In this document: positions 2,994 through 34,297 of the stretch, piece by piece | Layout: every line of letters starts with the position of its first letter | Numbering within the stretch: position 1 is the stretch's first letter | Assembly (NCBI GenBank): GCA_964554485.1 | Contig: CAZKOX010000001.1 | Location: 9,363-73,362, forward strand | Direction: 5' to 3' | DNA: 64,000 nt | Source: an uncultured Candidatus Saccharibacteria bacterium | Lineage (GTDB): Bacteria; Patescibacteriota; Saccharimonadia; Saccharimonadales; JAGQMS01 | Position numbers and translations under genes: made by a program | Notes under the pieces: model-generated | Seen by the model: only the letters and a program-made list of their open reading frames with translations | Told to the model about the DNA's origin: nothing | The model's database searches: none

Positions 2994-4232
2994 TTATTCT
3001 CGTCGCAACGCATCGATAGGGTTAATTTTAGCTGCTCTTCTGGCTGGCAGGAATACTACGGATAGACCGACCAGAATCATGAATAACACCAACCCAACAA
3101 TTAACCAAACCGGGGTAGCAAAGAGATCGAATGACTCATTGACACCTCTTTGACTAGCGAAACGATAAAGGATTACATTAACTATGGCTCCACCTCCAAC
3201 CGCCAGTACTATTCCAAATATTGATCCAACCAAGGAAAGAAGTATTGCCTCAAAAATAAATAGTCGTTTGACATCTCGGTTTCGTGCGCCCAAGGCCATC
3301 ATAAGGCCAATTTCTTTTGTTCTTTCAAGCAAAGAGACGGTTAGGGTGTTAAACATTCCCAATACAGCAACGATCATTCCGATGGCTCCAAAACCGAATA
3401 GTACGTAGTTAAATACCTTAAAAATTTGATTAATCTGGTCAACTGTGTCGGCAGGAGAAGTTGTAAGCAAACCAAGACTCTCAATTTGCTTACGAAGAGG
3501 GAGGACATTTTCTGTGTGATCAACAACTAGTTTCATTTGAGAATATGAGGTAACTCCGGCATTTTCAAATATATAGTTTGGAATAAAAACTTCACTTCCT
3601 GAACCGGAATCGACAATGCCGACAATAGTATAGGTGTCCTCTATCTCCTTAACTTCAGAGGTGGTTTTATCTTTAAGGGGAATAAGTAGGGATATTTTCT
3701 TGTTTATTAAATTGGTTTTTTCGTCTCCGCCGATAGCTTTAATGACAGAGTGGTTTATGACAGCAACTTTTGCGTCATTATCGCTCATACCCCGTCCTTT
3801 GACGAAATTTAGATTAGCTAGATCTTGATAATTCTTATCATATCCATATACGACGCTATCTATCTCGCTACTGTTGATCTTGAGGCTACCAGGGAAAGAG
3901 AATGATGAACCTATTGTTTGAACATGCGGAAGATTTTTTATCTTTTCCTTCATGCCGCTAGTCAACTTAACCACTTTTGAGTTTGGACTAGTAATGTCAA
4001 TAGATTTTATAGATTGGTTGCCGATAATTTCTTCTGTAACAAGATTTCGAACACCTATGCCGAATGATAGTAAGAAGAATATTGCTCCAATTCCAATAGT
4101 AATTCCAAAAACAGTTAAGAATGTGCGAAGTTTTTTTGAAACTAAGTTCTTCCAGGCAACATGAAGCAGTATTTTTATATTTATCCTGCGGCGCTTACGA
4201 AGCATTTTTGTTACTACATCAGATTTTTCCAT
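2994..4232 (-). CDS. ABC transporter permease, MacB/FtsX-like (N-terminal TM, large extracytoplasmic domain, C-terminal 3-TM FtsX domain)
   Basis: 412 aa; an N-terminal TM helix then a roughly 230-aa soluble domain, then the FtsX-type membrane domain (ALGARNRDVKRLFIFEAILLSLVGS...). Overlaps the upstream ATPase gene by 14 nt. Confidence 0.8.
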   Translation of the reverse strand: MEKSDVVTKMLRKRRRINIKILLHVAWKNLVSKKLRTFLTVFGITIGIGAIFFLLSFGIGVRNLVTEEIIGNQSIKSIDITSPNSKVVKLTSGMKEKIKNLPHVQTIGSSFSFPGSLKINSSEIDSVVYGYDKNYQDLANLNFVKGRGMSDNDAKVAVINHSVIKAIGGDEKTNLINKKISLLIPLKDKTTSEVKEIEDTYTIVGIVDSGSGSEVFIPNYIFENAGVTSYSQMKLVVDHTENVLPLRKQIESLGLLTTSPADTVDQINQIFKVFNYVLFGFGAIGMIVAVLGMFNTLTVSLLERTKEIGLMMALGARNRDVKRLFIFEAILLSLVGSIFGIVLAVGGGAIVNVILYRFASQRGVNESFDLFATPVWLIVGLVLFMILVGLSVVFLPARRAAKINPIDALRRE

Positions 4233-5085
4233 GACTACCTCCTAGTAGATTTTCTGCAGCTTGATCTACGGTCGGCGGAGGCGTTAACGTAGCTGGCGCA
4301 GGAGATCTCTTAGCTGAGAAACGATCAATTCGGGATTTCATATCTTGCATTAGTTTATCTGTTGTTGTGGAAATCGAGTCGCTTACCATCTCCTTAACAT
4401 ATCCATCTTCGATATGGATAAGGTGATCGGCGAGTGGAAGATACTCCATGTTATGCGTAACAAGTATGATTGTTCTTTTAGAATCAGTCTGAGTTGAACG
4501 AAGTAGTTCCATGATTTTGTCGCCACTTTTACTATCAAGGCTGCCCGTCGGCTCGTCGGCGATAATAAACATAGGCCTATTAACAATGGCTCTAGCCATC
4601 GCTACTCTTTGTTGCTCACCCCCGGATAGAAGTATTGGATACTTTTTGGAGTAACTCTGCATTCCAACTTGCTCCAAGGCACGATAGGCTGCTTCTGCGG
4701 CCTTAGCCTTTGTGTACCCAAGAAAATATAGTGGCATCGAAACGTTCTCTATTACGCTTAAACTCTTTACCCAAAAGTTTTGCTGATAAACGATGCCTAT
4801 TTCGTTTGCTCGGAAATGTGCAAGGCGATCTGGCGAAAAGTTATATATGTCGCTCTGATCAAATAATATTTCTCCATTAGTTGGCCTGAGCAGTCCAGTT
4901 AGAATATTAAGCAGAGTTGACTTACCTGATCCTGAGGGACCGTAGATAATATTGAATGTGTTTTCTCTAATTTCGAAACTTACATCTTTCAAGACATCAA
5001 AGGTTTCGTCGCTGACTCTAAAGCTTTGATTGACCCCAGTTGCCTTAATAATTACTCTTTTACTATTATCCATTTTATAGTCCAA
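4219..5085 (-). CDS. ABC transporter ATP-binding protein (MacB/LolD-type) with about 60-aa C-terminal extension
   Basis: Walker A GPSGSGKST, ABC signature LSGGEQQRVAMARA, Walker B IIADEPTGSLD. Start overlaps the giant protein stop by 11 nt. Confidence 0.9.
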   Translation of the reverse strand: MDYKMDNSKRVIIKATGVNQSFRVSDETFDVLKDVSFEIRENTFNIIYGPSGSGKSTLLNILTGLLRPTNGEILFDQSDIYNFSPDRLAHFRANEIGIVYQQNFWVKSLSVIENVSMPLYFLGYTKAKAAEAAYRALEQVGMQSYSKKYPILLSGGEQQRVAMARAIVNRPMFIIADEPTGSLDSKSGDKIMELLRSTQTDSKRTIILVTHNMEYLPLADHLIHIEDGYVKEMVSDSISTTTDKLMQDMKSRIDRFSAKRSPAPATLTPPPTVDQAAENLLGGSHGKI

Positions 5086-8000
5086 AAACTTGCTTTAAGG
5101 TATTGAGAATTATTGTTAACACGCTATCTGATGCTCGTCCGACAATCGCAGATTCTGTTGCACCTAGCCCGGTATTTCCGGCCCTGTCTTTAGAGATTGG
5201 AATTAAACTATAAACACGAGATGTAGGTAGGTCGGAAACAATCACGATGTGTTCAGTGGTTAGTTGAGTGTCCTCGGCGGTTTTGTTGTTGTAATTAGCT
5301 GCATTAGATCCTTCAGCATAGCCAACCTGGCTTGTTGCTGGTTCGTCGGTTTTCCATGAAACAACTACCTGGCCTCTTGCTTCCGCGCCAGTTCCACGAA
5401 TTGCGGATTCAATACTTATCTCTGACACTTTTGGCGGTCTTGTGTCTAGGGCTGTATGAAATTGTTGCCTATCAGAGACTGCAATATTTCCACCTTCATC
5501 TCTAGACTGAGCGACTAAGAAGTACTCGCTGTCGTCTTCAAGGTTACGAATTATTATTTCGTGATCAGTAACCAGATCAAGTACTTGTGCTTCCGTTCCA
5601 CTAGTTCCAACTTTCCCGTATGTAACTAAAGAATTGGCAGGCACGTTTGTTGTCCATGTAACAGTTTGGGTACTGGTTGGTTCGCCGATTATTGGCTGGA
5701 AACGGAGATCAGTTATTCGTGGACGCTGTGGTGTAGTAAACGAGAATACGCTACTTTCGTATGATGAGTTTTCATTATCAAATGTCAAAAGCTTGTAGAA
5801 ATATTTTGTACCATCATCAAGACCTTCAAGCTCGATTGAATAGGTAGATTCAGACAGAGAAGTATTAACTGTTGTGATCCCGCCGTAGTTTTCTCCTTTT
5901 CCGTAAAGTATAGACACCTTGGTTGCCTCTTTAGACGTAAAGGTAATTGCGGCTGTTGTTAAGCCGACGCGGCTAACTGTAATTTCTTTTAAGGACGGGG
6001 CAGGCGATGTGGTGAAGCTAAACTCTTGGCTCGTTCCAGTATTACCATCTTCATCAGTCCACTTTGCTATAGCATAGTAGGTTGTACCAGCACTTAAATT
6101 ATCTAGCTCAATTTCGTGAGCACTTACCTGGGCTGATATTGCTACTTCGGAAGGACTGTATTCACCACTAGCAGTGCCAAGCGCGATTTTTGAATCACTA
6201 GCTCTGTCCGTGCTCCATGAAACAGTAGCGCGTTTTGTGGTGATATTGCTAACTTCTGGGTTAGCGACCAAGGTAGCAGGTGAGGTGAATTTTCCGGTCG
6301 GAACTTCATTTACGACCGAACTATTTGCTCCGCAGTTATTTGTACTGTCGCAAGCTCGAAGGCGGTAGTAGTATCTCTGCTGGGCTAAGCCGGCGTCGAT
6401 ATATGTTGTACTTGAGCTACTGCCTACCTGTGAAAAAGTAGCATTATCGGTTGATCTATAAACCTTATATGAAGAGATTCCTGCCCCAACATCTGCTGGC
6501 TCGTTCCAGGTTATCGCAAGCCGCCAATTGTTAGTTGCCTTAATTGACACATCAACAATGTCGAGGTTTTCCGATATTCCAGGTGAAGGTGTGTTGGCGG
6601 TGAATACGGCAGTTCCGTAGTTGTCGTAGTTGATATTGCTAGACTCGTCTCTAGCGACCACATATATAGTATTTTCACCTGGTTGTGTCGCATAAGGACC
6701 AGCGCCTAGTGCCGTTACTCCAGCTGATGTGAAATTACAATTTATAGATGTTGGTATGGCATTTATCGTGTAACAGTACGTCAGGTTATTTACATCTCCA
6801 ACAAAAGTCGCAGGTGCGTCCCAGTCAAAAGCGAAAGAGTTTGTTACATTACTGGAAGGAGAGGCGATAATATTCAAAGGTTCTGAAGGAGCGCCACTAG
6901 TATTAATCTTAAGAGCAGCGGTTGCATAAGTACTGCTAACATTACCGGCATTATCCCAGGTCCTGAAGTAGACAGTATTTATACCCTCCTCTAAATCTAC
7001 AAAGTCTGGTGTGGGTATTGTGGTGTAACTACCGTCGTTGGCGAGTACGTCGTTTGAGTCACCGGTTCCTGTATGCGAGTCTCCGTACCAATTACCTGCA
7101 CCTATACGGTATTGCAGACCAACTAATCCGGAATTTATATCGCTCGGAGAACTAATTCCAGTGGTAGGCCAAGTTAAAGTAACCTCCTTAGAATTAATAA
7201 ACCCAGAAGGTGCGGTTATGTAAGCCGGGTTGGTTGGTGCGGTGTTATCGAACTTAAATGTGAACTGCTCGGTCGTATTGCTTATGTTTCCGGCGTTGTC
7301 GATGGCTTTGGCGAGTAAATAATAATTAGAATTGGAAGTGCTAAGAGGTGTAGCGATATATCCAGCGGTTGCGGTGTCTATGTTGTTGGTAGATATCATA
7401 AATTGGCAGTGGCCACCGGTTTCTACGGGACTTGTGCCAAGTAAACCTTTTGTAGTAACTGGGTCGGCAGTATCATCTGTCCCAAGATATAAACAATATC
7501 CTTTTATTCCGGATTCGCTATCAACCCCGGCTGTCCAGCTGAAATATGGCGATAGCCCATTAGACCAGGCGCCACTATTCAAGACACTACCTCCGTTAGC
7601 TTTTAGTGCAGCGATACTTGTGGCGTTTGCCGAAGGGTCAATAATATCTGAAGTTGCGGTTGCAGTAACACCATTTAAAGTAACTCTTTGGCTGCCGTCG
7701 CCCTGAAGTATCGCCTCCCATCGTAAACCATTGAACGTAACGGGGAAGCTGCTAATGTTGGTACTAATAGTTGTCTTGTTGTTTGCTTCAGCTATTGATC
7801 CGGATGTTTCCCAACTGTCGCCGTCCCAGTACTTCCATGTTGCGCCGTCATCGGACGAAAGGCGATACAGGATAGTTCCTCCATTTAGGGTTTCGTCAGC
7901 GTCAAAACTATCCCAGTGCCATACACCACTTTGTCGAACAGGTTCATTAAGTGAAATGCTCAAGGCGGCGTTGCTGTATGGTTTAGTGTTAAATGACGAC

Positions 8001-11000
8001 CTATTAATATTAGATATCCGAATCTCATCTAAACTACCTTCGAAGAAACCCTGAGAACGTCCATTATCAAACCCGCCATAAGATTTGCCGATTAATAAAT
8101 CCTGGTCACCGTCAGGAATAGTTAAGCTAGTATTATGAGTGCCAACGCTATTACCATCGATTAATATTTCCATGGTGGTGCCATTGTAGCGTCCTGCTAT
8201 GTGGTGCCAATTAGTATCTTGAGTGCTGGTTGAAGACTGAATAAAACCGTTATTACCGTAAGACCAAATCATGGCGTCGCCATTTGCAGTGTTCCCGGTG
8301 CTTGCGTATAACTTGCCTTGATAAACAACCATCGTTGTAACTTCTTCAATTGTGGTGTCTAGCCAGCTATCATTAAAACCATCGCCACCCACTTGCGCCC
8401 AGGATGTCCCGTTATATCTCCATACTTCACCGTCTCCAGTACTTAAACCGAGGCCGGCGTACAAGTCACCGTTATATGTAGCCATTGAACGAACGCGGTC
8501 GTAGTTATTAGAATCTAGCCAGCCCATATTGTCGCTGCCATTGCTGTCGCCGCCAATTTGCTCCCAGACTGGACTGCCGCTATCACAGTCTGAGCACGCC
8601 CAGACTTCGGCATCGTTGTTTGGAGTACCGGTACCAGATAACCCTAGTCCTACAACTAGCTTGTCGTTCCATACAACCAGAGACTGAATGTCCTCATATT
8701 TTGTGTTTGCCCAGCTGCTGTTTATGGCATCTCCTCCGACTTTTGTCCAAGTCGTACCGCTACCACTATACCGCCAGACCTCTGCTAATCCTGCAGCATT
8801 TGCACCTAGCCCAACATAAAGCGAACCCCTGTATGTTGCCATCGAACTGATGGTTGTATAGCTAGCTGTGCCCCAGTTGCCGGAAGCCGTTCCACCGATT
8901 GCTGCGCCACCCCAGTTAGGGCTCCCGCCGTCACATCCGGTGCATTCCCAGACTTCGCCATCTCCAGCACTTGATCCGAGGCCGGCGTATAATTTTCCAT
9001 TAGCAACACCAAGAGAGTAAACATATTCATAAGTCGTACTCCATGAACTGCCGACGGACGGGCTGCCGTCTGCAACCTTTGTCCAGCCTGGATTATCAAA
9101 TCTCCAAACTTCTGCTTCCCCGGCAGTACTTCCTAAACCGACGTATAATTTATTTTTATAATTTACCATCGACCATACTGCTTCATATGTATCGATAGCC
9201 CAACTGGAATCTATGCCTTGTCCACCAACAACCGACCAGAATCCAGTTGAAGGATCAAGCTCCCAGACAGTCGCATCCCCGGCAGTATTATTTCCAGTGC
9301 CGACATACATTTTGCCTCCGGCTGTAGTCGAAGATTCGATACTATCAATATTGTATTGACCCCAGCTTTTATTGACATATTTTCCACCTATACGATTTCC
9401 ACCCCAAGTTGGTGAACCGCCGTTGCAGTTCGTGCACTGCCAAAAATATGCTTCAGTCGTGTTAGTTAAGCCAGCATATACTGTTGTGTCATCTACAACA
9501 AGTGCTCGAATGCTATTATGCGTTGCATTCCAGCCGCTGTTCACATTGTCACCGCCAACTTTTGTCCAAGAACCGTCATATCGCCATACTTCGTCGTCGC
9601 CGTTTGCTGAGTTTCCTGTACCAACATACAGAGTTGAACCGTTATTGGTAATGCTAAAGATACCTTCTTTATCTACTCCAAAGTTCGCCGAACTTCCTAA
9701 TTTTGTCCAACCACTTCCAGTAGGCGTGCAGTTAATGGTGACATCACAAGACCATATTTCGGCATCGGTATTGGCGGTAATACCTGTACCAACATAAATT
9801 GTATTTCCGTTAGATGCCATCGACAAAACATACTCAGCGACAGACCCCCAACTTTGACCGCCGGCTCCAGAGCCATCACCTCCTCGCTTAGTCCAAGATG
9901 CAGAACCCGGAGTGGTGCAACTGGCGGTGCAATGCCATACTTCTGCATCACCAGCCGTAGAGCCAAGTCCTACCACTGGATTACCACCGACAACGGTCAT
10001 TGCATAAACAACTTCATAACCCGCACCCCAGCCACGAGCGCCACCGGTAGCGTTGTAGCCACCAACACGGCTACTTCCCCAGCTAGGGCTAGTCTCACAG
10101 TTAGTGCACGCCCACACTTCTCCCATATTTGCGCCTGTTCCTAGACCAGCAAATAGTGTCGTTCCGCTTACAGCTAACGAATAGACTCCATTAAAAGCAT
10201 TGCCAGCCCATCCACTATTAAGTCCGTCACCGCCAATTTTAGTCCAGGAACCAGACTTAAATCTCCAAACATCTCCGTCGTTAGTACCTGTTCCCAGACC
10301 GGCATAGAGAACATCTGTGCCGTTAGTCGCTAGGGACAATACTGCCTCGTAGGCATTGGTGCTAATCTCATTATTCCAACTGGAAAAAATACCATCTCCG
10401 GCTACTTGAGCCCACAACCCCAAAGAGGTGTCATATTCCCATATCTCAGCGTCATTAGTGCTGCCACCAAGGGCGGCATATATCTTTGACCCCATCTTTA
10501 CAGATGCGTAGGCGGTTTGTTTTCCATTTTGGTCCCAGCTGCGGTTTACCTTAGCTCCATTATTGGCCAACATGTTATATCCGGCCTGTTGTGTCCAACC
10601 CGTTGATCCTGAATTCTCTAATTCATAAGTAACTTTTCCAGTTTCATTATCGTAGTAGAGCTGGTATTCACCCTTATCTAAGATAGTCTGCCTATATTGT
10701 GAGCTTCCAGCGCTAAAGTTGCTGTCAAATTTTGTCCAACCTTCTAGGGTATTACTTGCTGTGAGCGAAAGCGATGCTGAGTCTGGCGAGATAGCATACT
10801 GAGAAGTGCCGTCTAGGGATAGGCTGTTATTTAAATTACCGGTTGCCCAGATTGGTGTATTGTTTGTGATGGCGTCATTATTGTTTGCAGAAGAATCATC
10901 TGCTGTCGTTCCGCCAAGTTCGTCAAGGTGGAATAGGGCCATGGTGTTAGCGTCGCTTGTGTAGTTCTGGGCTTTCATGCGCACGCTACTACCGCTTGTC

Positions 11001-11362
11001 TCAAGGTTGTCGTCGAAGCTGTAATCCGATGGGGTTAAGAAGTCCCAAGTGTTGTTTAGGTCAGCAGCGAATGCGACCCTGTAAGAAGTAAATAAGACAC
11101 CAAAGACTGCAAGAACATAAATAGCAAGAACAGAAAAATGTAACTTTCCATGATGTTGCCAGGTGTGCCAATTTTTGTACCATTCGACCCTTTCCATAAA
11201 GAATAGGTGAGGTCTTTTGGCGGTATGGTGGTGAATAAAAAGAACAATTTTTTTCGTGTAAAGGTGAGAAAATTTAGCAATATTTAAAAAAAGTCGACCG
11301 ACAAAGCCAACAAAGTAGCGTAGTGCACGACCAAGCATAATGATAATGTTTCTAACATTCAT
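5075..11362 (-). CDS. giant (about 2040-2095 aa) membrane-anchored surface protein: about 14 tandem ~55-aa repeats (probable beta-propeller), LamG/ConA-like lectin domain, several FN3-like domains
   Basis: Single ORF. The first ~55 codons of the ORF look non-protein-like; the more likely start is the MERVEWYKNW... ATG near 11197, followed by a TM/signal segment (LAIYVLAVFGVLFTSYRVAFA). Repeats of form WTKxGGDGxNSxW...LYxGLGxxxGDxEVW, a LamG signature (GSLDEIRISN), and C-terminal FN3-like segments (YYYRLRACDSTNNCG). Confidence 0.8.
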   Translation of the reverse strand: MNVRNIIIMLGRALRYFVGFVGRLFLNIAKFSHLYTKKIVLFIHHHTAKRPHLFFMERVEWYKNWHTWQHHGKLHFSVLAIYVLAVFGVLFTSYRVAFAADLNNTWDFLTPSDYSFDDNLETSGSSVRMKAQNYTSDANTMALFHLDELGGTTADDSSANNNDAITNNTPIWATGNLNNSLSLDGTSQYAISPDSASLSLTASNTLEGWTKFDSNFSAGSSQYRQTILDKGEYQLYYDNETGKVTYELENSGSTGWTQQAGYNMLANNGAKVNRSWDQNGKQTAYASVKMGSKIYAALGGSTNDAEIWEYDTSLGLWAQVAGDGIFSSWNNEISTNAYEAVLSLATNGTDVLYAGLGTGTNDGDVWRFKSGSWTKIGGDGLNSGWAGNAFNGVYSLAVSGTTLFAGLGTGANMGEVWACTNCETSPSWGSSRVGGYNATGGARGWGAGYEVVYAMTVVGGNPVVGLGSTAGDAEVWHCTASCTTPGSASWTKRGGDGSGAGGQSWGSVAEYVLSMASNGNTIYVGTGITANTDAEIWSCDVTINCTPTGSGWTKLGSSANFGVDKEGIFSITNNGSTLYVGTGNSANGDDEVWRYDGSWTKVGGDNVNSGWNATHNSIRALVVDDTTVYAGLTNTTEAYFWQCTNCNGGSPTWGGNRIGGKYVNKSWGQYNIDSIESSTTAGGKMYVGTGNNTAGDATVWELDPSTGFWSVVGGQGIDSSWAIDTYEAVWSMVNYKNKLYVGLGSTAGEAEVWRFDNPGWTKVADGSPSVGSSWSTTYEYVYSLGVANGKLYAGLGSSAGDGEVWECTGCDGGSPNWGGAAIGGTASGNWGTASYTTISSMATYRGSLYVGLGANAAGLAEVWRYSGSGTTWTKVGGDAINSSWANTKYEDIQSLVVWNDKLVVGLGLSGTGTPNNDAEVWACSDCDSGSPVWEQIGGDSNGSDNMGWLDSNNYDRVRSMATYNGDLYAGLGLSTGDGEVWRYNGTSWAQVGGDGFNDSWLDTTIEEVTTMVVYQGKLYASTGNTANGDAMIWSYGNNGFIQSSTSTQDTNWHHIAGRYNGTTMEILIDGNSVGTHNTSLTIPDGDQDLLIGKSYGGFDNGRSQGFFEGSLDEIRISNINRSSFNTKPYSNAALSISLNEPVRQSGVWHWDSFDADETLNGGTILYRLSSDDGATWKYWDGDSWETSGSIAEANNKTTISTNISSFPVTFNGLRWEAILQGDGSQRVTLNGVTATATSDIIDPSANATSIAALKANGGSVLNSGAWSNGLSPYFSWTAGVDSESGIKGYCLYLGTDDTADPVTTKGLLGTSPVETGGHCQFMISTNNIDTATAGYIATPLSTSNSNYYLLAKAIDNAGNISNTTEQFTFKFDNTAPTNPAYITAPSGFINSKEVTLTWPTTGISSPSDINSGLVGLQYRIGAGNWYGDSHTGTGDSNDVLANDGSYTTIPTPDFVDLEEGINTVYFRTWDNAGNVSSTYATAALKINTSGAPSEPLNIIASPSSNVTNSFAFDWDAPATFVGDVNNLTYCYTINAIPTSINCNFTSAGVTALGAGPYATQPGENTIYVVARDESSNINYDNYGTAVFTANTPSPGISENLDIVDVSIKATNNWRLAITWNEPADVGAGISSYKVYRSTDNATFSQVGSSSSTTYIDAGLAQQRYYYRLRACDSTNNCGANSSVVNEVPTGKFTSPATLVANPEVSNITTKRATVSWSTDRASDSKIALGTASGEYSPSEVAISAQVSAHEIELDNLSAGTTYYAIAKWTDEDGNTGTSQEFSFTTSPAPSLKEITVSRVGLTTAAITFTSKEATKVSILYGKGENYGGITTVNTSLSESTYSIELEGLDDGTKYFYKLLTFDNENSSYESSVFSFTTPQRPRITDLRFQPIIGEPTSTQTVTWTTNVPANSLVTYGKVGTSGTEAQVLDLVTDHEIIIRNLEDDSEYFLVAQSRDEGGNIAVSDRQQFHTALDTRPPKVSEISIESAIRGTGAEARGQVVVSWKTDEPATSQVGYAEGSNAANYNNKTAEDTQLTTEHIVIVSDLPTSRVYSLIPISKDRAGNTGLGATESAIVGRASDSVLTIILNTLKQVFGL

Positions 11363-11517
11363 TCAGATATTTTTGACTCGACTGTCAAACCCCTAAAACC
11401 CCTAATATTCTGACTCAAATAATAACATAAACACTACAGTTCTTAGCTCGTTATTTTAGCTTAACTTGAGCATAAGCATGTTGTGCAGATCACAAAGAAT
11501 GTTTAACATGTATTTAT

Positions 11518-12354
11518 ATGAGAAAAAACGTCAAAGGTTTTTCGGTAGTCGAAGCAGTTATTATTTTGGTAGTCGTGGCGGTCTTGGGGCTTTCGGGTTG
11601 GTGGTTTTTACAACGTCGTTCTAACACTGACAATTCTCAAAATAATAATGAAACAAGCAAAGAAGAAACCAGTTCAAACGTAAATTGGAGCTTTGACGGC
11701 GAAAAATGGAGCAGTAGCGAAGCACCACCGGCTTGCGATGATCCGTTATCGATACCTTCGCCAGTTGATATTTCAAAAGCTACGGGAATTTTATATCCAG
11801 GGCAGTATCGAGGTGGAAACTACAAACCGCACGGAGGTTTTCGATTTGATAGCAGCACCAACGCAGATATAACAGTCACGGCACCATTTGATTCGGTTGT
11901 CATAAAGGGAAGTCGATATATAGAAAGAGATGAAGTGCAGTATATGTTTGTTCTTACGACTTCCTGCGGAATTATGTATCGTTTCGATCATCTGTTGACC
12001 TTGTCTGCTGCTTTTCAAGCCTTAGCCGACACGTTACCGGCAGCAAAAGTCGATGATTCTCGAACCACTGATTTTACCTCGCCGCCAAAAGTTAAGGCTG
12101 GTGACATTATTGCGACGGCAGTTGGTTTCAAAAACACCGGTAATGTTGCGGTCGACTTCGGGGTATATGACTTAAGGCAAAAAAACAAAGCCTATGAAAG
12201 TGATAGCTGGAAAGCTGAACATTCTAATGACATGGAGGCGGCACCTTACGGTATCTGTTGGTTGAACTATTTGGCTGGTAGTGCCAAGGACGTTGCTTTA
12301 GAACTCCCGGGGGCTGACGGTCAGGCTGGTAAAACTAGTGATTACTGCGAGTAA
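11518..12354 (+). CDS. type IV prepilin-like protein (class III signal peptide)
   Basis: N-terminus MRKNVKGFSVVEAVIILVVVAVLG matches the prepilin peptidase motif [KR]-G|F-x-x-x-E followed by a hydrophobic helix. 278 aa with 4 Cys in the C-terminal half. Confidence 0.65.
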   Translation: MRKNVKGFSVVEAVIILVVVAVLGLSGWWFLQRRSNTDNSQNNNETSKEETSSNVNWSFDGEKWSSSEAPPACDDPLSIPSPVDISKATGILYPGQYRGGNYKPHGGFRFDSSTNADITVTAPFDSVVIKGSRYIERDEVQYMFVLTTSCGIMYRFDHLLTLSAAFQALADTLPAAKVDDSRTTDFTSPPKVKAGDIIATAVGFKNTGNVAVDFGVYDLRQKNKAYESDSWKAEHSNDMEAAPYGICWLNYLAGSAKDVALELPGADGQAGKTSDYCE

Positions 12355-13114
12355 CATCATGATTGAACTATTTCTTGTCAGTATCGCAATAAATTTACTA
12401 ATGTTTATTCCGGCATTTAGGTATAAGACTGACAAACTAACTGACCTGTCGTACGCGTTGTCTTTTATCGTTTTGTCAACGGTGGCGTTTCTTTCAAGTC
12501 AAAAAGATCCAGCTCATCTTATTCTTCTTGTGATGGTTTTAACTTGGTCGATACGACTTGGTGGCTTCTTGTTTTTGAGGATAAGAAAACAAAAACGCGA
12601 CAAACGTTTTGACGAAATGCGTGATAGTTTCTGGAAATTCGGTAGATTTTGGTTACTACAGGGAGTGAGCGTCTATGTAATATTGCTAGCTAGTTTGTTT
12701 GCATGGAATAAAGACGGGTTAATGTTTGGGTGGCTTAACTTGGCTGGACTGGCTGTATTCATCACTGGTTTGTTGATTGAATCGACGGCTGACTATCAGA
12801 AGCGAAAGTTTAGTGCTAAGGCGGAGAATAAGGACAAATGGATAGACACTGGTTTGTGGTCTATAAGCCGGCATCCAAATTATCTAGGCGAAATGTTAGT
12901 TTGGGCGGGAGTATATACCTACACCTTTTCTTATCTATCGAACAGCGAGAGATTAATTGGCTTGCTTAGTCCTTTATATATTGTCTGTTTGCTGCTTTTT
13001 GTTAGCGGGATACCATTACTAGAAAAAGCAGCTGACCAAAAGTGGGGCGAAAACGCAGAATATAAAAAATACAAAAAACGCACCCCAGTATTATTGCCAA
13101 TAAAAATAAGGTAG
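12338..13114 (+). CDS. polytopic membrane protein, DUF1295 / ICMT-steroid 5-alpha-reductase-like superfamily
   Basis: About 6 TM helices; a C-terminal RHPNYLGE motif typical of DUF1295/ICMT-like enzymes. Overlaps the upstream gene by 17 nt (start may be the internal MIELF...). Confidence 0.55.
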   Translation: MITASNIMIELFLVSIAINLLMFIPAFRYKTDKLTDLSYALSFIVLSTVAFLSSQKDPAHLILLVMVLTWSIRLGGFLFLRIRKQKRDKRFDEMRDSFWKFGRFWLLQGVSVYVILLASLFAWNKDGLMFGWLNLAGLAVFITGLLIESTADYQKRKFSAKAENKDKWIDTGLWSISRHPNYLGEMLVWAGVYTYTFSYLSNSERLIGLLSPLYIVCLLLFVSGIPLLEKAADQKWGENAEYKKYKKRTPVLLPIKIR

Positions 13115-13143
13115 GTGTTGCTTAATAAATCTTGTTAAATTCC

Positions 13144-13171
13144 TCGATATATTTATATATAAATATATCGA
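13144..13171. promoter_or_regulatory. perfect 28-bp palindrome (tcgatatatttatatataaatatatcga) in the promoter region of the adhesin-sortase operon; candidate operator
   Basis: Sequence equals its own reverse complement across all 28 nt. About 130 nt upstream of the 13304 start; TTGACT/TTGACA -35-like hexamers follow at 13198-13211. Confidence 0.5.
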
Positions 13172-13303
13172 CGAAACATCTTAAAATCTGTGCAAAAGTT
13201 GACTATTGACATCTTTATGTTTTAAGAGGATAGTAAAGATATAAGGATCGGCTGGAGAGTGGGACCTCGACCCGTATAGTAAAAAGTAACTAACGGAGCA
13301 GAC

Positions 13304-16300
13304 ATGAAAATATTCAATCGTTCAAGCCTCAAAAAAACAAAAAGTGTCTTAATGTCAGCTGTGCTTTTGGCATCACAAGTTGTGCCGTTTTTAGGTTTAT
13401 CAGCAACCGCTAAAGCGGCAGATACTGGATTTAATTTACCAACTACGACACATACTCCGAATGGTTGGGGCGCCGGGGCTCTCGGTGATGCAAGTAATGG
13501 ACTTACTGATAATGGCCAATATGCAGAAGCAAATCCACAAAATCAGCCAGAACAGGGTTTTTCAAATTTTGGTATTTCGATTCCCGCTGGATCAATTATT
13601 GATGGAATCCAACTACAAGCAGAAGCTAAGTCAAATGATAGCGGGACAGACTGTGATCTAGGGGTCGAGCTTTCTTGGAATAACGGTACTAATTTTACTT
13701 CGAGTGGTTTTAATGAGAGCTTGGGTTCTTCAGATGCACTGGAAGTCTTTGGTGGCGCTTCAAGTACTTGGGGTAGAAGCTGGAGTGCAGCTGAATTTAG
13801 TAATGCAAACTTTGTTGTTCGACTTAAGGCCATTGATCCTAGTCAATGTAGTGACAGTTCTATAACATCTGTTGATTATCTACAAGTGAAAGTTTATTAC
13901 ACCGAGCCATCGGACCTAGTAGTAACGAAGTCGAATAATGTAAGCGGGTCGGTTGTTGTCGGTAATTCCTTCAACTGGGTTCTAACAGTTTCAAACAACG
14001 GGCAAGGATCAGCTAGCTTCAGTAATAATCAAGATATTTTGCAAGATAACTTGCCAACAGATGCGAGTTATTCAAACCCTGCGGTATTAACTGGTGGCGG
14101 AGTAACCGGAACGATTGATTGTGGAATATCAAGCGATAACCTTGATTGTGATGCTGATGGTACAGTAGTAATCCCTGCCGGTGGCTGGTTTACTGTCACT
14201 ATCACTGTTACACCTGACGGCGTAGGTACTCTTGCTAATCCCCGAAGTGGTGGCGGTAATATGTGTAAGGTTGATCCAGATAACTTAAAATCTGAATCAA
14301 ATGAAGCAAATAACACCTGTAGCGACAGTGTTTCTGTAACACTAGTCCAACCATCACCTAACCCAGTACTTGGGCAGTCTTGTGGTCTTGATATTGCGCT
14401 CGTTATTGATAACTCAACAAGTATTGATAGCGGTGAGCTTGCAACCATGAAGACAGCAATGACGGCGTTTACGACTGCATTTGCTGGAACCCCAACCCAA
14501 TTTTCTGTTACTAGATTTGCCACAACAGGCGCGGTTTTGCAGCCATTCACTACGGACTTCACAGCCGTAAATTCAGCCATTAATGGCATTCCTGTTGGAG
14601 GCGGATACACTAACTGGGAAGACGGACTTCTAAAAGCTCAAGGCACATTTGACCCACGAACCAACCCGAACCTAGTTGTCTTTGCATCTGATGGCAATCC
14701 AAACCGTGTCGATAATGGTACAGATGTAAGTGAAACACAAGCTACCAACGAAGCAGTCCTAGTTGCTAATAATATAAAAACCGTTACTGGAGCACGCATA
14801 ATTGCCCTTGGTATCGGAAATGATCTTGATACAGCAAACTTACAGGCAGTATCAAGTGCTGATGCGGTAATAACAAGTGATTTTGCAGCGCTAGCGCAGA
14901 CACTTGCCGATCTTGCTGCGACACTATGTGGCGGTACGATCACAACAACCAAACTTGTCGATGTTGACGGTGATCCAAGTACAACCGGTGACCAAACTGT
15001 TGCTGAAAATTGGGAATTTGACGTAAATGGTAGCCCAAGCAACCCAAGTCCAGTTTCTACAGATGCGAATGGACAAACTCCAGCGGTAGAGGTTGATCCT
15101 GGAACTTATTCGGTAAATGAAACAGCAAAGAACGGCTATAAAGTAGTTGGTGCTAAATGTTACAAGAATCAAGAGGCGGTTGGTAGTTGGCAGAACGGCA
15201 GTACATCGGTTACAGGCATAACAGTCGGTGCTACAGATATCGTTTCATGTGTGTTCATCAATACCTTAAATCAAGGCACATTGATTGTTAAAAAGGTGGT
15301 TGTTAATGATAACGGCGGAAAACTTAATGCCGAAGATTTCGGGTTTAAAGTTGATGGTGGATCGACTGTTGCATTTGAATCAGATGGTCAAAATGATTTA
15401 ACAGTTACTGCCGGCGAGTATACAGTTACTGAACAGGAAGTGTCTGGTTACTCAGCAACCTACGATAACTGTACAGATGTCGTAGTACCTATTGCCGGTA
15501 GCGCAACATGCACAATTACAAACAATGACCGTGCACCAAGCCTAACGTTAAACAAGAATCTTGAAGATAACATTTATGGCGGTGGCTACAGTAGTGCGGC
15601 GTGGACACTCATAGCTAAAGGCGCGACAAACTTAAGTGGAAAATCAGGCGTAACAAGCGACTCAGATTTTAGCGCAGGAACGTACGAACTTAGTGAAGAG
15701 GGTCCAGGCGAGCCGGCCTTCATTATGGGTGATTGGGACTGTGGCGATGTCGACCTAACTGATGCAACACTTGTAGTAAATCTTGGCGATAACATCACTT
15801 GCACAGTGACCAATACAGCTGTTCAGCCGAAGTTGACAGTCATAAAAGTGGTTAAAAATGGTGATTCAGAAGGTGGAAAATCGGCCTCAGACTTTACGAT
15901 GAACGTAAGTGGAACCGATGTGAGTGATTCAAGCTTCTCTGGGGACGAAAACGGAACAACAGTTGGCTTGGACGCCGGATCTTACGAAGTAACCGAAGGC
16001 GACCACGAAGGATATGCTGTTGAATACAGTAAAGGTTGCGAAGGCACAATCGAGCTAGGAGAAGAGTTAACCTGTACTGTTACGAACACTAGACTTGGAA
16101 CAATCAAGATTGTTAAGGACGCACAGCCAGATTCAGAACAGGCCTTTACCTTCACTGGTAATTTAACTGGTGACGACGGTCCTAACTTTGAGCTTACTGA
16201 TGACGGAGTTAATCCAGGCCTTGCCTATAGAGAGTTTGCGCTCGAAGAAGGCACTTACACTGTTACAGAACCAAGCGTTAAGGACTGGGATCTTGATTCA

Positions 16301-17338
16301 ATTAACTGTACCGAAGGAAGTGACGTTAATGTCAACGAGCGAAATGTTGTGATCAAGCTTGGAATTGGTGAGAACGTAACATGTACCTTCATAAATAAAC
16401 AGCGCACTGGAAATGTTACGGTTGTTAAGTATAACGATCAAGACCGCGATGGATACTTCGATGAAGACGAAACAACACTACCGAACTGGGACATTGTTCT
16501 TGGCGAAACTACACAAACAACAGATGTTAACGGCGAAACAACCTTTACCAACCTTCTTCCAGGCTGGCATGAGCTAAGTGAAGTTCAGCAGGATGGCTGG
16601 AATTACAGCGATACTTACTGTGAGTACGACGGTGAGCCAGCTGGCACATGGGAAGGTGACTACTATGCTCAAGTCTATGCCGACGAAACAACCCACTGCT
16701 ATATCGGCAACTACAAAGATCCTGCTCTTCAAATCGCCAAGACCAACAACTCTGGCGAATCCAAGAAGGTTGAGGAAACAGTTACTTACAGCATTACACT
16801 TGCAAATGCAGCTGACGGCTCGTTCCTTTACAACCCAAGTGTTAGCGATACGCCACCAGCTGGATTTAGCTACGTAAGCGGCAGCTGGACGGCAACATCC
16901 GACCTTCGCGGCGATCTAAAAGCTGCGCTAGTTGTGGCAGAACCAAACTTTGGCGTTAGCCCAGTGGTCTGGACCTTTGGCGGAGCTGATGCTTCAGAAG
17001 ATGTCTTGATGCCAGGCGAAACAATTACCTTGACTTACCAGATGAAAATTGCCAAAAGTGTAGTACCAGGAACTTACACTAACTATGCAACTGGCTCGGC
17101 TTGCGGAATACGAGAGTTCAACTATGAAGATACAATCTACCGAATCGTTAATGAACAGTTAGTGAATCGTGACTGCGTCACTACAGAAAAAGTTCATAGC
17201 GACGTAAAAGTTAAGGGTGTAACAATTGTTCTTGCGCAGACTGGTGTATCTAGCTACATACCAGTGGCGTTTGGACTGGTCTTAATTGGCGGAGCGCTAC
17301 TTACTACTCGACGAAAATTTGTTCTGGATAAGGAATAG
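13304..17338 (+). CDS. sortase-anchored giant adhesin: signal peptide, vWA (MIDAS DxSxS) domain, multiple ~90-100-aa prealbumin/CnaB-like repeats, C-terminal LAQTG sorting signal
   Basis: N-terminal signal peptide (MKIFNRSSLKKTKSVLMSAVLLASQVVPFLGLSATAKA). DIALVIDNSTSIDSGEL vWA/MIDAS block. Repeated GxYxVTE...GY...C...NxTCTxTN modules. C-terminus LAQTG + hydrophobic stretch + TTRRKF positively charged tail. Confidence 0.85.
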   Translation: MKIFNRSSLKKTKSVLMSAVLLASQVVPFLGLSATAKAADTGFNLPTTTHTPNGWGAGALGDASNGLTDNGQYAEANPQNQPEQGFSNFGISIPAGSIIDGIQLQAEAKSNDSGTDCDLGVELSWNNGTNFTSSGFNESLGSSDALEVFGGASSTWGRSWSAAEFSNANFVVRLKAIDPSQCSDSSITSVDYLQVKVYYTEPSDLVVTKSNNVSGSVVVGNSFNWVLTVSNNGQGSASFSNNQDILQDNLPTDASYSNPAVLTGGGVTGTIDCGISSDNLDCDADGTVVIPAGGWFTVTITVTPDGVGTLANPRSGGGNMCKVDPDNLKSESNEANNTCSDSVSVTLVQPSPNPVLGQSCGLDIALVIDNSTSIDSGELATMKTAMTAFTTAFAGTPTQFSVTRFATTGAVLQPFTTDFTAVNSAINGIPVGGGYTNWEDGLLKAQGTFDPRTNPNLVVFASDGNPNRVDNGTDVSETQATNEAVLVANNIKTVTGARIIALGIGNDLDTANLQAVSSADAVITSDFAALAQTLADLAATLCGGTITTTKLVDVDGDPSTTGDQTVAENWEFDVNGSPSNPSPVSTDANGQTPAVEVDPGTYSVNETAKNGYKVVGAKCYKNQEAVGSWQNGSTSVTGITVGATDIVSCVFINTLNQGTLIVKKVVVNDNGGKLNAEDFGFKVDGGSTVAFESDGQNDLTVTAGEYTVTEQEVSGYSATYDNCTDVVVPIAGSATCTITNNDRAPSLTLNKNLEDNIYGGGYSSAAWTLIAKGATNLSGKSGVTSDSDFSAGTYELSEEGPGEPAFIMGDWDCGDVDLTDATLVVNLGDNITCTVTNTAVQPKLTVIKVVKNGDSEGGKSASDFTMNVSGTDVSDSSFSGDENGTTVGLDAGSYEVTEGDHEGYAVEYSKGCEGTIELGEELTCTVTNTRLGTIKIVKDAQPDSEQAFTFTGNLTGDDGPNFELTDDGVNPGLAYREFALEEGTYTVTEPSVKDWDLDSINCTEGSDVNVNERNVVIKLGIGENVTCTFINKQRTGNVTVVKYNDQDRDGYFDEDETTLPNWDIVLGETTQTTDVNGETTFTNLLPGWHELSEVQQDGWNYSDTYCEYDGEPAGTWEGDYYAQVYADETTHCYIGNYKDPALQIAKTNNSGESKKVEETVTYSITLANAADGSFLYNPSVSDTPPAGFSYVSGSWTATSDLRGDLKAALVVAEPNFGVSPVVWTFGGADASEDVLMPGETITLTYQMKIAKSVVPGTYTNYATGSACGIREFNYEDTIYRIVNEQLVNRDCVTTEKVHSDVKVKGVTIVLAQTGVSSYIPVAFGLVLIGGALLTTRRKFVLDKE

Positions 17339-17343
17339 AACAA

Positions 17344-17961
17344 ATGAAGATAGGGGGTGGGCAGTCTAAGGTTTCTATGCATCGAAAGATTAACAATATT
17401 CTGACTGTTATAGTTATTGGACTTGGTAGCTACTTGCTGCTTGCTCCTTTCACGCCATCGATTGATTTTTGGGTAAAGAAGCGAGGTGGTTTTGATACTC
17501 CAAGCTACGCTATTAAAACTGATGTCAAAAAAGCAGTAGCGGATATTCCTTCTGACAACAGATTAGCAATTCCTAGTATTGGTCTAGACGAACACGTTTT
17601 TGAAAGTACTGTGCCGGACGGTATAAACAAAGGTGTATATCAAAGGCCAAAAACCTCAGATCCTTCTCTGGGAAGTAACACGGTTTTTGTTGGACACCGT
17701 TTTTCGTATTTTCCAAATATTCCATCGCCATTTTATAACCTTGATAAGGTTAGTTTAGGTGATGAGATGGTAGTGGTTTGGAAAGGCGTTATCTACAGAT
17801 ATAAGGTCAAAGAGATTAAAGTAGTCGAGCCGACCGAATTTATGGTTGAAGCACCAACCAAAGAGTCGAAATTAACGATCTATACCTGCACGCCACTTTG
17901 GTCGGCGAGTCAGCGTCTTGTGATTATTAGTGAACTAATAACTGAAAGGGCAGCACAATGA
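17344..17961 (+). CDS. sortase family transpeptidase
   Basis: 205 aa, N-terminal TM anchor, catalytic-type His (VFVGHRF), Cys in LTIYTCTP (TLxTC-like) and a downstream Arg. Located 5 nt after the LAQTG substrate gene. Confidence 0.75.
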   Translation: MKIGGGQSKVSMHRKINNILTVIVIGLGSYLLLAPFTPSIDFWVKKRGGFDTPSYAIKTDVKKAVADIPSDNRLAIPSIGLDEHVFESTVPDGINKGVYQRPKTSDPSLGSNTVFVGHRFSYFPNIPSPFYNLDKVSLGDEMVVVWKGVIYRYKVKEIKVVEPTEFMVEAPTKESKLTIYTCTPLWSASQRLVIISELITERAAQ

Positions 17962-18038
17962 ACCTTGAGTGGCGTCGCACAACTGTATTAGTTTTTTTGT
18001 TACTTCTTGGCGTTCTTTGCCTAATCGTACTAGGTGCA

Positions 18039-18908
18039 TTACAAAACCCTAGTCTTAGTTAATTTGCAGTTGGTATTAGCGCAGTCTTCGCATATGACAT
18101 GTAGTTTACGGCGAATATTGGTGCTATTGACCTGATGGCTAGTCTTTTTACCGCATATTTCGCAAGATGCGATGTCTTTTGATTTGTCAGAAAAGCCCAT
18201 CTTCATGCGGTCGTCAAAAACAAATAACTTACCCTCCCAGAGACCTTCATCGCCAAATTTTTCGCCGTATTTTACGATACCACCGTCGATTTGGTAGACC
18301 TCTTTATAACCTCGGTTTAACATCATGGCGCTTAAGATCTCACAACGAATTCCGCCAGTGCAGTAGCTAACAATCGGTCGGTCCTTGTATTTGCTAATTT
18401 CGCCTTCCTCAAGATCTTTTTTAAAGTCACGGCTGGTAGTAACATTTGGAATAACTGCGTTTTTGAACTTTCCAATCTGGGCTTCGTACATATTGCGGCC
18501 GTCATAAAAGATAACATCGTCGCCGCGCTCTTCAACTAACTTATGAACTTGAGCAGGTTTTAGATGTTTACCGCCGTTTTCTATGCCGTTTTTACCAACC
18601 ACAATTTCGTCGGCGGCGTCGAAGGCTACGATCTCTGGCTTGACCTTAACTCGAAGTTTTGGAAAATGTTCCTCGCCGCCATCGCTCCATTTATAGGTAA
18701 TATCACCAAACAGGCTATGAGCTTTCATTTCACGGGTATAGTATTTGAGGTTTTTAAGATCGCCGCCAAGAGTGGCGTTGATGCCGTGTCTACTAATAAG
18801 AACTCGACCCTTAAGGCCTAGTTTTTCGCACAGTGCACGCTGCCAATGCATAACCGTCTCGGTATCTTCAATCGGCACGAATTTATAAAAAAGAATAATT
18901 TTTTGCAT
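18039..18908 (-). CDS. trhO: rhodanese-domain protein, TrhO/YceA (tRNA U34 hydroxylase) family
   Basis: N-terminal UPF0176 block (ILFYKFVPIEDTE...GRVLISRHGINATLGG), rhodanese active-site loop YCTGGIRCE, C-terminal Cys-rich tail. Confidence 0.75.
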   Translation of the reverse strand: MQKIILFYKFVPIEDTETVMHWQRALCEKLGLKGRVLISRHGINATLGGDLKNLKYYTREMKAHSLFGDITYKWSDGGEEHFPKLRVKVKPEIVAFDAADEIVVGKNGIENGGKHLKPAQVHKLVEERGDDVIFYDGRNMYEAQIGKFKNAVIPNVTTSRDFKKDLEEGEISKYKDRPIVSYCTGGIRCEILSAMMLNRGYKEVYQIDGGIVKYGEKFGDEGLWEGKLFVFDDRMKMGFSDKSKDIASCEICGKKTSHQVNSTNIRRKLHVICEDCANTNCKLTKTRVL

Positions 18909-34026: not shown

Positions 34027-34100
34027 CGGGGATTAGCTCAATCGGTAGAGCACCCACCGTAATACGTGGCAGGTTGTGGATTCGAGTTCCGCATCCCCGA
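34027..34100 (+). tRNA. tRNA gene, identity unresolved (anticodon arm folds as 4-bp stem with 8-nt loop cgtaatac)
   Basis: Acceptor cggggat/atccccg, U8, D-arm gctc-aatcggta-gagc, T-arm gtgga-ttcgagt-tccgc, discriminator A. The anticodon region cccaccgtaatacgtgg cannot form a canonical 5-bp/7-nt arm. Confidence 0.55.
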
Positions 34101-34224
34101 CTGCTTGGAGTGTGAGCGTAAGTCTAGCTTTCCTTGAAGTGAAGGTCTTCGTGTACGAAAGTAAATGGTGGACGGTACTTTTTCACCTAACGAGACCGAC
34201 GACGACACACTCCAGGCAACCCCC

Positions 34225-34297
34225 GCCCTTGTAACTCAGTTGGCAGAGTAGCCGCCTTCAAAGCGGTATGTCATGGGTTCGAATCCCATCAGGGGCA
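34225..34297 (+). tRNA. tRNA with anticodon UCA (UGA-decoding; opal suppressor-like or recoding tRNA), canonical 73-nt class I cloverleaf
   Basis: Acceptor gcccttg/caggggc (one G-U), D-arm actc-agttggca-gagt, anticodon stem gccgc/gcggt with loop c-u-UCA-a-a, variable loop 5 nt, T-arm atggg-ttcgaat-cccat, discriminator A73. Confidence 0.7.

Follow-up and report, generated by a model that had tools for sequence, protein, structure and literature searches.

A probable adhesin-sortase-micro-protein operon in a Saccharibacteria genome and three neighbours that do not seem to belong to it

Do genes that stand close together, point the same way and enclose a striking palindrome also work together? 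The question is raised by a 64,000-nucleotide stretch of an uncultured Saccharibacteria genome (contig CAZKOX010000001.1; the whole stretch is called the window below), in which four open reading frames (ORFs) encode, in this order, a 278-aa protein with a prepilin-like N-terminus, a DUF1295 membrane protein, a giant adhesin with a von Willebrand factor A (vWA) domain and a sortase, with the palindrome lying between the second gene and the third. An earlier note on this DNA took them all for one regulated attachment module. The four ORFs are indeed all present where that note had placed them, and they are co-directional; what stands of the module, however, is the attachment unit of adhesin and sortase, whereas the prepilin, the DUF1295 gene and the palindrome as an operator fall away as its parts. 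In other words, we consider it very probable that the region contains one functional unit, namely an operon consisting of a promoter, a leader and the genes for the adhesin, the sortase and a micro-protein, together with three bystanders: the 278-aa gene, the DUF1295 gene and the palindrome.

The comparison was centred on the sortase, whose 80 best matches in a species-representative genome set were taken with 10 kb on each side. All 80 loci come from the candidate phyla radiation, where sortases are known to be frequent (PMC6744442), mostly from Saccharibacteria and in a few cases from Dojkabacteria, with sequence identities of at most 48%. Where homologues of the 278-aa protein, the sortase or the adhesin carry an organism name, it is always that of a Saccharibacteria/Saccharimonadales assembly. 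Four close relatives of the locus were used as well: L001, a strain 99.73% identical to the window over 3.7 kb; L089, a third strain with flanks 97-98% identical and a sortase identical to that of the window; L090, the closest orthologous locus, at 79-90% nucleotide identity; and L091, an independent Logan contig that matches the window across the 211 nt aligned. The order of genes in L090 is giant protein (minus strand), DUF1295, adhesin (1232 aa), sortase, 34-aa gene, rhodanese (minus strand) and DEAD helicase. A literature search found no description of sortase substrates, of a sorting motif or of a small sortase partner in Saccharibacteria.

Three features that the earlier note had attributed to the adhesin, namely a vWA domain with an intact metal-ion-dependent adhesion site (MIDAS, here DNSTS), at least six prealbumin/CnaB-like repeats, and a sorting signal composed of LAQTG, a hydrophobic segment and RRKF, are all confirmed. 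The vWA domain scores 51.6 bits against PF00092 (cut-off 23.8), and the five coordinating residues of its MIDAS (D369-N-S371-T-S373, T436 and D463) are invariant in 29 homologues. What is more, when a model of an adhesin fragment (pLDDT 85.8) was compared with known structures by Foldseek, it matched vWA/I-domains with E-values down to 1e-10 and target-normalised TM-scores of at most 0.84. The six stalk repeats, all of SpaA type, share upon alignment an invariant Lys in the first strand, an E-box Glu in G-x-Y-x-V-x-E, C and a C-terminal Asn, and from these Lys/Glu/Asn triads we infer isopeptide bonds in the stalk. At the C-terminus, LAQTG is followed by 21 hydrophobic residues (VSSYIPVAFGLVLIGGALLTT) and then by RRKF, a complete tripartite layout that scores 17.1 bits against TIGR01167 (cut-off 15.9) and is identical in the proteins P0242 and P0243, which also keep the AKAADTGF junction at the end of the signal peptide. 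A scan of the 64 kb for sorting signals returned the adhesin alone, with no second sorting-signal protein and no major pilin, in agreement with the earlier note, which had seen no pilin of LPxTG type. The whole protein has no match in the PDB by sequence. Its N-terminal domain, modelled mostly as strands, heads many Saccharibacteria vWA proteins and has no Pfam match at E of 1 or below; in the homologues P0341 (where it is present five times), P0268 and P0311, Pfam scans likewise left it without a family, and the Foldseek results, dominated by vWA matches, did not identify its fold. The CARDB/DUF11-like unit that follows occurs as tandem repeats in other proteins.

The adhesin is not the same in all strains. 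Namely, window positions 13445-13928, which approximately correspond to the N-terminal domain, find no blastn match in L089 between its near-identical flanks, and in the protein alignment residues 44-195 are visibly divergent and the remainder is near-identical. Positions 15831-16420 likewise have no nucleotide match in strains with 97%-identical flanks; they correspond to stalk domains 4-5 (aa 843-1039), where the window has an SpaA_2 domain that diverges and one SpaA_4 domain more. The window contains no silent cassettes that could have served as donors for the variable domains. These patterns indicate allelic cassette replacement combined with gain or loss of domains. Replacement of a tip domain would be expected of a surface protein under diversifying selection, and a tip swapped among near-identical strains would therefore suit a role in recognising a host or a ligand.

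The sortase gene begins 5 nt past the stop codon of the adhesin, as the earlier note had it, and the missing Cys or His that the note had named as a possible objection are both in place: H118, C182 (in LTIYTC) and R191 are intact here and invariant in an alignment of 27 relatives. But which class of sortase is it? The protein passes PF04203 with 76 bits (cut-off 26.6) and TIGR01076 with 61 bits (cut-off 39.35). On the other hand, models of classes C, D and E give 52-60 bits against cut-offs of 140-165 (in particular, 60.5 bits against 160 for the class C model NF033745 and 52.6 bits against 160 for the class E model NF033747), and the general sortase model alone passes. When the sortase family profile was run against the PDB, class C scored 83 bits, class D 74 bits, class E SrtE1 (5cuw) about 53 bits and class A about 50 bits, so that both class C and class D outscore class E, to which the earlier note had pointed by way of the motif, and we do not retain that assignment. 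A DP[FWY] lid is not recognisable either, as the FW found after the transmembrane segment lacks a conserved Asp-Pro in the 27 aligned relatives. Because the class models remain below their cut-offs, only the general model passes and no such lid is recognisable, the enzyme is, as far as sequence models can place it, an unclassified sortase and not a member of class E.

Its substrates do resemble those of class E, with LAQTG here and L[V/A]xTG on the substrates encoded beside the sortase in related loci. The signal of class E in Actinobacteria is LAxTG, whose Ala at P3 the class E sortases recognise by means of a conserved Tyr in the beta3/beta4 loop (PMC5148588). The aromatic residue located 19 positions before the catalytic His is Y99 in the present sortase and Trp in most of the 27 relatives, and it might correspond to SrtE1 Tyr229. 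In 23 of the 80 loci, a sorting-signal protein is encoded no more than 600 bp from the sortase, the motifs being LVNTG (13), LADTG (3), LVDTG (2) and, once each, LAETG, LANTG, LARTG, LVKTG, LINTG and YVNTG; in a survey of 120 adhesin homologues, the second position of the motif was Ala, Val, Pro or Gly. As a non-canonical motif, LVNTG is known from Gardnerella, where the fibrinogen-binding Cna of G. vaginalis carries it (PMC12095359). That protein, with a non-canonical LVxTG signal on a stalk of Ig folds, is similar to the Saccharibacteria substrates, but it belongs to another phylum and binds through N2/N3 domains, whereas the adhesin of the window has a vWA domain and LAQTG. Among the side observations on related loci, small substrates of 249-271 aa with a single DUF11 domain and an LVNTG or LADTG end stand beside the sortase in L029, L043, L045, L046 and others, and a family of about 102 aa with an LTDTG-like signal occurs in 11 sortase loci of other Saccharibacteria. 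The sortase ORF called in three Dojkabacteria loci (L038, L042 and L058) has 336-392 aa compared with about 200, either because the called start is too far upstream or because an extra segment is fused to it.

Downstream of the sortase lies a micro-ORF that the earlier note does not mention. Across 83 sortase loci surveyed, 75 have a comparable ORF after the sortase, 57 of them with the same 4-nt overlap. The products, 31-64 aa long and mostly 31-42, align almost without gaps (69 micro-proteins aligned) and share M-x-E-[WK]-x-[RK]-[TF], a hydrophobic segment of approximately 20 residues and a short tail. No Pfam or NCBIfam family covers the micro-protein, and in L089 and L090 its ORF was called as a gene. 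The survey of neighbours in the 80 loci puts this in perspective: the micro-ORF alone is near-universal, the adhesin family clusters with the sortase in 15 loci, and no regulator, signal peptidase or pilin recurs. Two further details may be added. The Dojkabacteria loci L042 and L058 have no comparable micro-ORF after the sortase, and the candidate in L038 looks spurious; in the window, the last 24 nt of the micro-ORF (18039-18062) are shared with the 3' end of a rhodanese-like (UPF0176) gene that converges on it.

Among the known systems close to this arrangement is that of actinobacterial SrtA and SafA, described for Actinomyces oris, Corynebacterium and the Streptomyces sortases SrtE1/E2 (PMC9282373, PMC5148588), which, as here, pairs a single N-terminally anchored sortase with a non-proline sorting motif. 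SafA, which protects its sortase from signal peptidase and has been reported absent from Firmicutes (PMC9282373), is, like the micro-protein, a small single-pass membrane protein encoded directly downstream of the sortase, and both are predicted to be oriented N-in/C-out. That said, SafA has 52 aa, and the actinobacterial SrtA is a class E enzyme, whereas the present sortase falls below the class E cut-off and comes from the candidate phyla radiation. By analogy, we regard the micro-protein as a positional counterpart of SafA whose way of working may be similar, without counting it among the SafA family.

What would drive expression of these genes? The best promoter-like site between positions 11000 and 18500, as judged by match to consensus, lies between the palindrome and the adhesin gene. 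This candidate and the leader that follows it are 93% and 91% identical to L090, respectively, conservation over the two ranging from 89 to 93%, compared with approximately 79% for the neighbouring coding sequence, and the leader is identical in L001, L089 and L091. A structured RNA in the leader was ruled out by its folding z-score of -0.01, and an Rfam E-value scan of positions 12900-13500 gave chance-level matches only, with no family for the leader. Exact-match scans of public JGI metagenomes returned 0 matches for both a 26-mer of the promoter and a 22-mer of the leader. Transcription from this promoter to the micro-ORF as a single operon would follow from the arrangement. The features of the region are listed in Table 1.

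Table 1. Positions of the features discussed, numbered from the first letter of the window; the presumed operon comes first, its neighbours after it
Feature	Position	Strand	Basis and remarks
Sigma-70-like promoter candidate	13206..13234	+	TTGACA, 17 nt, GATAGT; 10/12 consensus positions
Leader (5' UTR) with GGAG ribosome-binding site	13235..13303	+	about 70 nt, conserved
Adhesin, 1344 aa	13304-17338	+	VWA, SpaA_2 x4, SpaA_4 x2 and SpaA matches
Signal peptide, aa 1-39, ending ...TAKA/ADTG	13304..13420	+	sequence reading
N-terminal domain, aa 40-202	13421..13909	+	beta-rich (predicted), no curated family; swapped among near-identical strains
CARDB/DUF11-like domain, aa 203-346	13910..14341	+	PF07705 E 5e-5, PF01345 E 9e-3
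vWA domain, aa 348-548, complete MIDAS	14345..14947	+	PF00092 E 1.7e-13 (residues 363-532)
Stalk, six prealbumin/CnaB-type domains (SpaA_2, SpaA_4, SpaA), aa 549-1138	14948..16717	+	Pfam; repeat alignment
DUF11/DUF7507-like domain, aa 1139-1309	16718..17230	+	PF01345 E 3e-7
Cell-wall sorting signal, aa 1310-1344: LAQTG, hydrophobic segment, RRKF, stop	17231..17338	+	sequence reading; TIGR01167
Membrane-anchored sortase, 205 aa	17344..17961	+	PF04203 E 3e-21; transmembrane segment at about residues 17-37; H118/C182/R191
Micro-protein, 34 aa, single-pass membrane (predicted)	17958..18062	+	ATG overlaps sortase TGA as ATGA; sequence MNLEWRRTTVLVFLLLLGVLCLIVLGALQNPSLS
278-aa Saccharibacteria envelope protein	11518..12354	+	anchor helix (KG/FSVVE), linker, LytM/M23-like beta domain; outside the adhesin module
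DUF1295 membrane protein, 251 aa	12359..13114	+	PF06966 E 9e-59; mechanical ORF from GTG 12338
AT-rich palindrome	13140..13175	.	28 nt perfect (13144-13171), 17/18 pairs over 36 nt; strain-polymorphic

Taken together, the sorting signal, the intact triad and MIDAS, the tight spacing of the two genes and their pairing in related loci (a large vWA/SpaA adhesin homologue adjoins the sortase in 14 of 80, usually divergently) support the reading of adhesin and sortase as a cell-surface attachment unit. A number of observations count against this reading, or against parts of it. The adhesin adjoins the sortase in a minority of the related loci, and shuffled sequence yields no fewer promoter-like sites than the region does. 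The defining motifs of SafA, a conserved PGP and an exoplasmic FPW (PMC9282373), are found in 0 of the 69 aligned micro-proteins, and it is for this reason that we keep the micro-protein out of the SafA family. Nor does the alignment reveal an obvious AXA signal-peptidase site after the transmembrane segment of the sortase, which leaves a SafA-like mechanism an analogy. Finally, class C is where the sortase family profile scores best in the PDB, and the last domain of the adhesin weakly matches the fimbrial isopeptide model TIGR04226 (27.5 bits, cut-off 30).

The last two points bear directly on an alternative view of the adhesin. Pilus tip adhesins, RrgA and SpaC among them, are built from this combination of vWA domain, CnaB repeats and sorting signal, and one could argue that here, too, the Thr of LAQTG is joined to a Lys of a major pilin encoded elsewhere, and not directly to peptidoglycan. 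The sortase profile and the fimbrial match would fit this, as would the LVNTG, LADTG or LANTG proteins of 249-463 aa that other Saccharibacteria have beside the sortase. The resemblance to RrgA, GBS104, SpaC and the MSCRAMMs of Cna/Sdr type is in fact extensive, comprising the signal peptide, a distal MIDAS-containing vWA domain, a CnaB stalk with Lys-Glu-Asn, the sorting signal and an adjacent sortase. However, the pilus systems of RrgA, GBS104 and SpaC have major or basal pilins and a lid-bearing class C sortase nearby, which are missing here. The single sortase of the window has no recognisable lid, the Asp before its FW not being conserved, it reaches well under half of the class C cut-off, and the small neighbouring substrates in other loci either consist of one DUF11 domain or match no pilin family. 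The adhesin also differs from all these proteins, MSCRAMMs included, in its uncharacterised N-terminal and CARDB-like domains and in having LAQTG in place of LPxTG. Since it contains no YPK pilin motif and since the 64 kb hold no other protein with a sorting signal, we favour, within the limits of this window, a monomeric wall-anchored stalk over a pilus tip, which we regard as decidedly improbable.

How might the monomeric stalk adhesin reach its place? The precursor would be exported via Sec and retained in the membrane through RRKF and the hydrophobic segment before it. The N-terminally anchored sortase, with His118, Cys182 and Arg191, would then cleave LAQTG between Thr and Gly and transfer the adhesin to a peptidoglycan precursor, so that it would end up covalently attached to the cell wall; this anchoring is what the sequences lead us to expect. 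The mature protein would be a single-chain stalk of six CnaB/SpaA-type domains with their Lys/Glu/Asn triads on a DUF11-like base, presenting the MIDAS vWA domain and the CARDB-like and strain-variable N-terminal beta domains, which would bind an external ligand in a metal-dependent manner; a plausible ligand is the surface of a host bacterium. As for the micro-protein, its translation would be coupled to that of the sortase, and it may associate with this enzyme in the membrane, as SafA does with the housekeeping sortases of Actinobacteria.

Let us now turn to the genes upstream. The 278-aa protein begins with MRKNVKG/FSVVE and continues into a hydrophobic helix, and it is the sole protein of the window with a prepilin-like N-terminus. 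The prepilin signal of the earlier note is, therefore, present with a complete KG/FSVVE motif, but what follows it does not resemble a pilin. An AlphaFold2 model based on 65 sequences (pLDDT 91.9) runs from a helix at the N-terminus through a disordered linker to a beta-rich domain, and the top 17 Foldseek matches of this globular domain in the PDB are all of M23/LytM type, with probabilities of 0.87-1.00 and target-normalised TM-scores of at most 0.61; among them are lysostaphin, EnvC, ShyA, SpoIIQ and DipM. Proteins with such domains include active members (lysostaphin, LytM and ShyA) and non-catalytic ones (EnvC, NlpD, SpoIIQ and DipM). The globular fold is alike, but M23/LytM peptidases have the canonical zinc motifs HxxxD and HxH, whereas the 278-aa protein lacks them as such and has a pilin- or lipoprotein-like tether at its N-terminus; invariant in its family are H105, D157-H158 and D213, with H235 present in 60 of 65 relatives. 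By sequence, it has no match in the PDB and none in Pfam or NCBIfam, including PF07963 (N_methyl) and PF01551 (M23). The family is large and well conserved, with more than 1385 homologues. Nevertheless, G/FxxxE is kept in just 12 of the 65 relatives, most of which have N-termini of G-F-A-H-V type without Glu+5, and several carry lipoprotein-like signals (lipobox). Given the LytM-like fold of the model, the 12 of 65 and the lipoprotein signals, what is conserved in this family appears to be the extracytoplasmic tethering of a LytM-like domain, and not incorporation into a pilus.

The position of this gene points the same way as its fold. Namely, none of the 80 loci has a homologue within 10 kb of the sortase, and the whole gene (window 11438-12358) has no counterpart in L090 (L090 4673-4718), being an insertion or a deletion between the two genomes; the claim that the cluster starts with a type IV prepilin gene is not supported. 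In relatives, what follows the homologue varies: a type I restriction-modification island, an amino-acid permease, or an AAA kinase and then a rhodanese gene. A side observation concerns the relative L088, where a 415-aa ORF of similar length and with no Pfam match on record directly abuts the 278-aa gene, with no giant protein gene between. The GspE/PilB-type ATPase that the earlier note had placed at 62219-63814 is there (PF00437, E 3e-86). A known case in which vWA adhesion and type IV pili are truly linked is the minor pilin PilB of Streptococcus sanguinis (bioRxiv 10.1101/2021.01.27.428410), an adhesive MIDAS vWA protein whose structures (7b7p, 7ba2) are among the Foldseek matches of the adhesin. 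In PilB, however, the vWA domain is fused to the pilin, whereas here the vWA protein has Sec and sortase signals and it is another protein, LytM-like and unlinked to it, that has the pilin-like N-terminus.

The DUF1295 protein is a clear member of its family (199 bits against PF06966, cut-off 20.4), and its true start is probably ATG 12359 and not GTG 12338, since the homology to L090 sets in at 12359, in agreement with the gene calls in L001, L090 and L091. As a member of the module it does not hold up: a DUF1295 gene is found near the sortase in only 1 of the 80 loci, where it lies 3.7 kb away on the opposite strand. It adjoins the adhesin operon only in close relatives and has no detected link to the module.

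There remains the palindrome. The perfect 28-nt inverted repeat described in the earlier note (TCGATATATTTATATATAAATATATCGA) exists, and extending it to its full 36 nt costs one mismatched pair. No second copy exists in the window, 100 shuffles gave a chance expectation of 0 matches, and no inverted repeat in the 64 kb is longer. An assembly artefact was ruled out because the independent contig L091 carries an identical copy, so the palindrome is real DNA. The contig of L089 ends exactly at its right edge, which fits an assembly break at an inverted repeat and proves nothing. As an operator, on the other hand, the palindrome fails the comparison with related loci. L001 differs from the window at 10 positions over 3.7 kb, 6 of which fall inside 13140-13175 and degrade the left arm, and L090 is 28-53% identical at the junction and has no hairpin (z +0.65). 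As it is degenerate in the one and absent in the other, the very outcome that the earlier note had named as speaking against its view, and as the promoter and leader just downstream are conserved, the palindrome cannot be taken for a conserved operator. We read it as a quasi-palindrome, AT-rich and polymorphic between strains, that occupies the spacer following DUF1295. That the changes gather in one arm would be explained by a template switch or slippage, and the two alleles among near-identical strains suggest either a local mutational hotspot, through quasi-palindrome template switching, or an error of low-coverage assembly.

Could all four genes nevertheless form one regulated module, with the prepilin-like protein as a link to type IV pili and the palindrome as the operator of a dimeric transcription factor? 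One can argue that the genes are co-directional and closely packed, that the N-terminal signal of the 278-aa protein is complete in this genome, and that a palindrome far beyond chance, reproduced in L091, stands about 35-62 nt upstream of the -35 hexamer, where activators can bind. We nonetheless hold this to be very unlikely indeed. The two upstream genes are near the sortase in 0 and 1 of the 80 loci, the first of them is an indel relative to L090 and encodes a fold that is not that of a pilin, with Glu+5 in few relatives, and the palindrome decays next to a conserved promoter; its half-site, moreover, is not enriched elsewhere in the window (15 matches, 9.4 expected). A different role for the palindrome would be that of an RNA hairpin that ends or stabilises the 278-aa/DUF1295 transcript and thereby insulates the adhesin promoter. 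It does begin 26 nt past the DUF1295 stop codon, and the hairpin predicted from it has -13.1 kcal/mol (z -4.7). But this hairpin has no U-tract, its stem is nearly all A-U, a terminator scan did not report it, and it shrinks to -3 kcal/mol in L001 and disappears in L090. This explanation we consider unlikely, if less so than the pilus tip or the four-gene module; a neutral quasi-palindrome fits better, given that 6 of the 10 strain differences are clustered there.

Elsewhere in the window, a gene at 2994-11362 (minus strand) encodes a giant protein of 2095 aa that has a transmembrane segment at its N-terminus and contains, besides Gly/Trp repeats of propeller-like type, LamG, fn3 and Pur_ac_phosph_N-like domains. 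The gene runs at its 3' end into the beginning of one for an ABC ATPase, a MacB/FtsX permease gene comes next, and the arrangement looks like an operon. A scan of the whole window at Rfam gathering thresholds found two tRNAs only. The tRNA at 34225-34297 (plus strand; Rfam 70 bits) has the anticodon UCA, which would read UGA, and was called tRNA-SeC by ARAGORN; at 34027-34101 there is a further, odd call, tRNA-like but with an anticodon of two bases. Recoding of UGA finds no support: under code 11 the long ORFs are unbroken, and TGA closes 5 of 43 of them, the sortase gene included.

What do these results mean? For the scanning of genomes the lesson is mainly negative, in that co-directional neighbours and a striking palindrome failed the comparison with related loci. 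The operon of sortase and adhesin is itself ordinary, and the points worth following are the micro-protein partner, the use of L[V/A]xTG with an unclassified sortase and the swapped tip domain. What is new is modest, namely a small sortase partner and a non-proline sorting motif in this phylum. The former suggests that small partners of sortases are not confined to Actinobacteria, and the micro-ORF shows once more how easily very small genes escape notice in genomes of the candidate phyla radiation. As a tentative idea, which we think could well be wrong, Saccharibacteria and some other lineages of this radiation might have a sortase class of their own, outside A-F by the available class models, with L-[V/A]-x-T-G signals, an obligatory membrane partner of 31-42 aa, nearly always coupled to the sortase in translation and without a curated family, that would be a functional analogue of SafA of independent or diverged origin, and giant vWA adhesins whose swappable tip specifies the host.

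The life of Saccharibacteria is one of attachment to other bacteria, and the means by which a host is recognised and held are only partly understood, with type IV pili being implicated so far. Work on TM7x has led to the proposal that surface adhesins act at close range after a first contact made by type IV pili (PMC11623550). An adhesin of the present kind, with a MIDAS, a presumed anchor in the wall and a tip exchanged between near-identical strains, offers a concrete candidate for one that acts at close range and is specific to a host.

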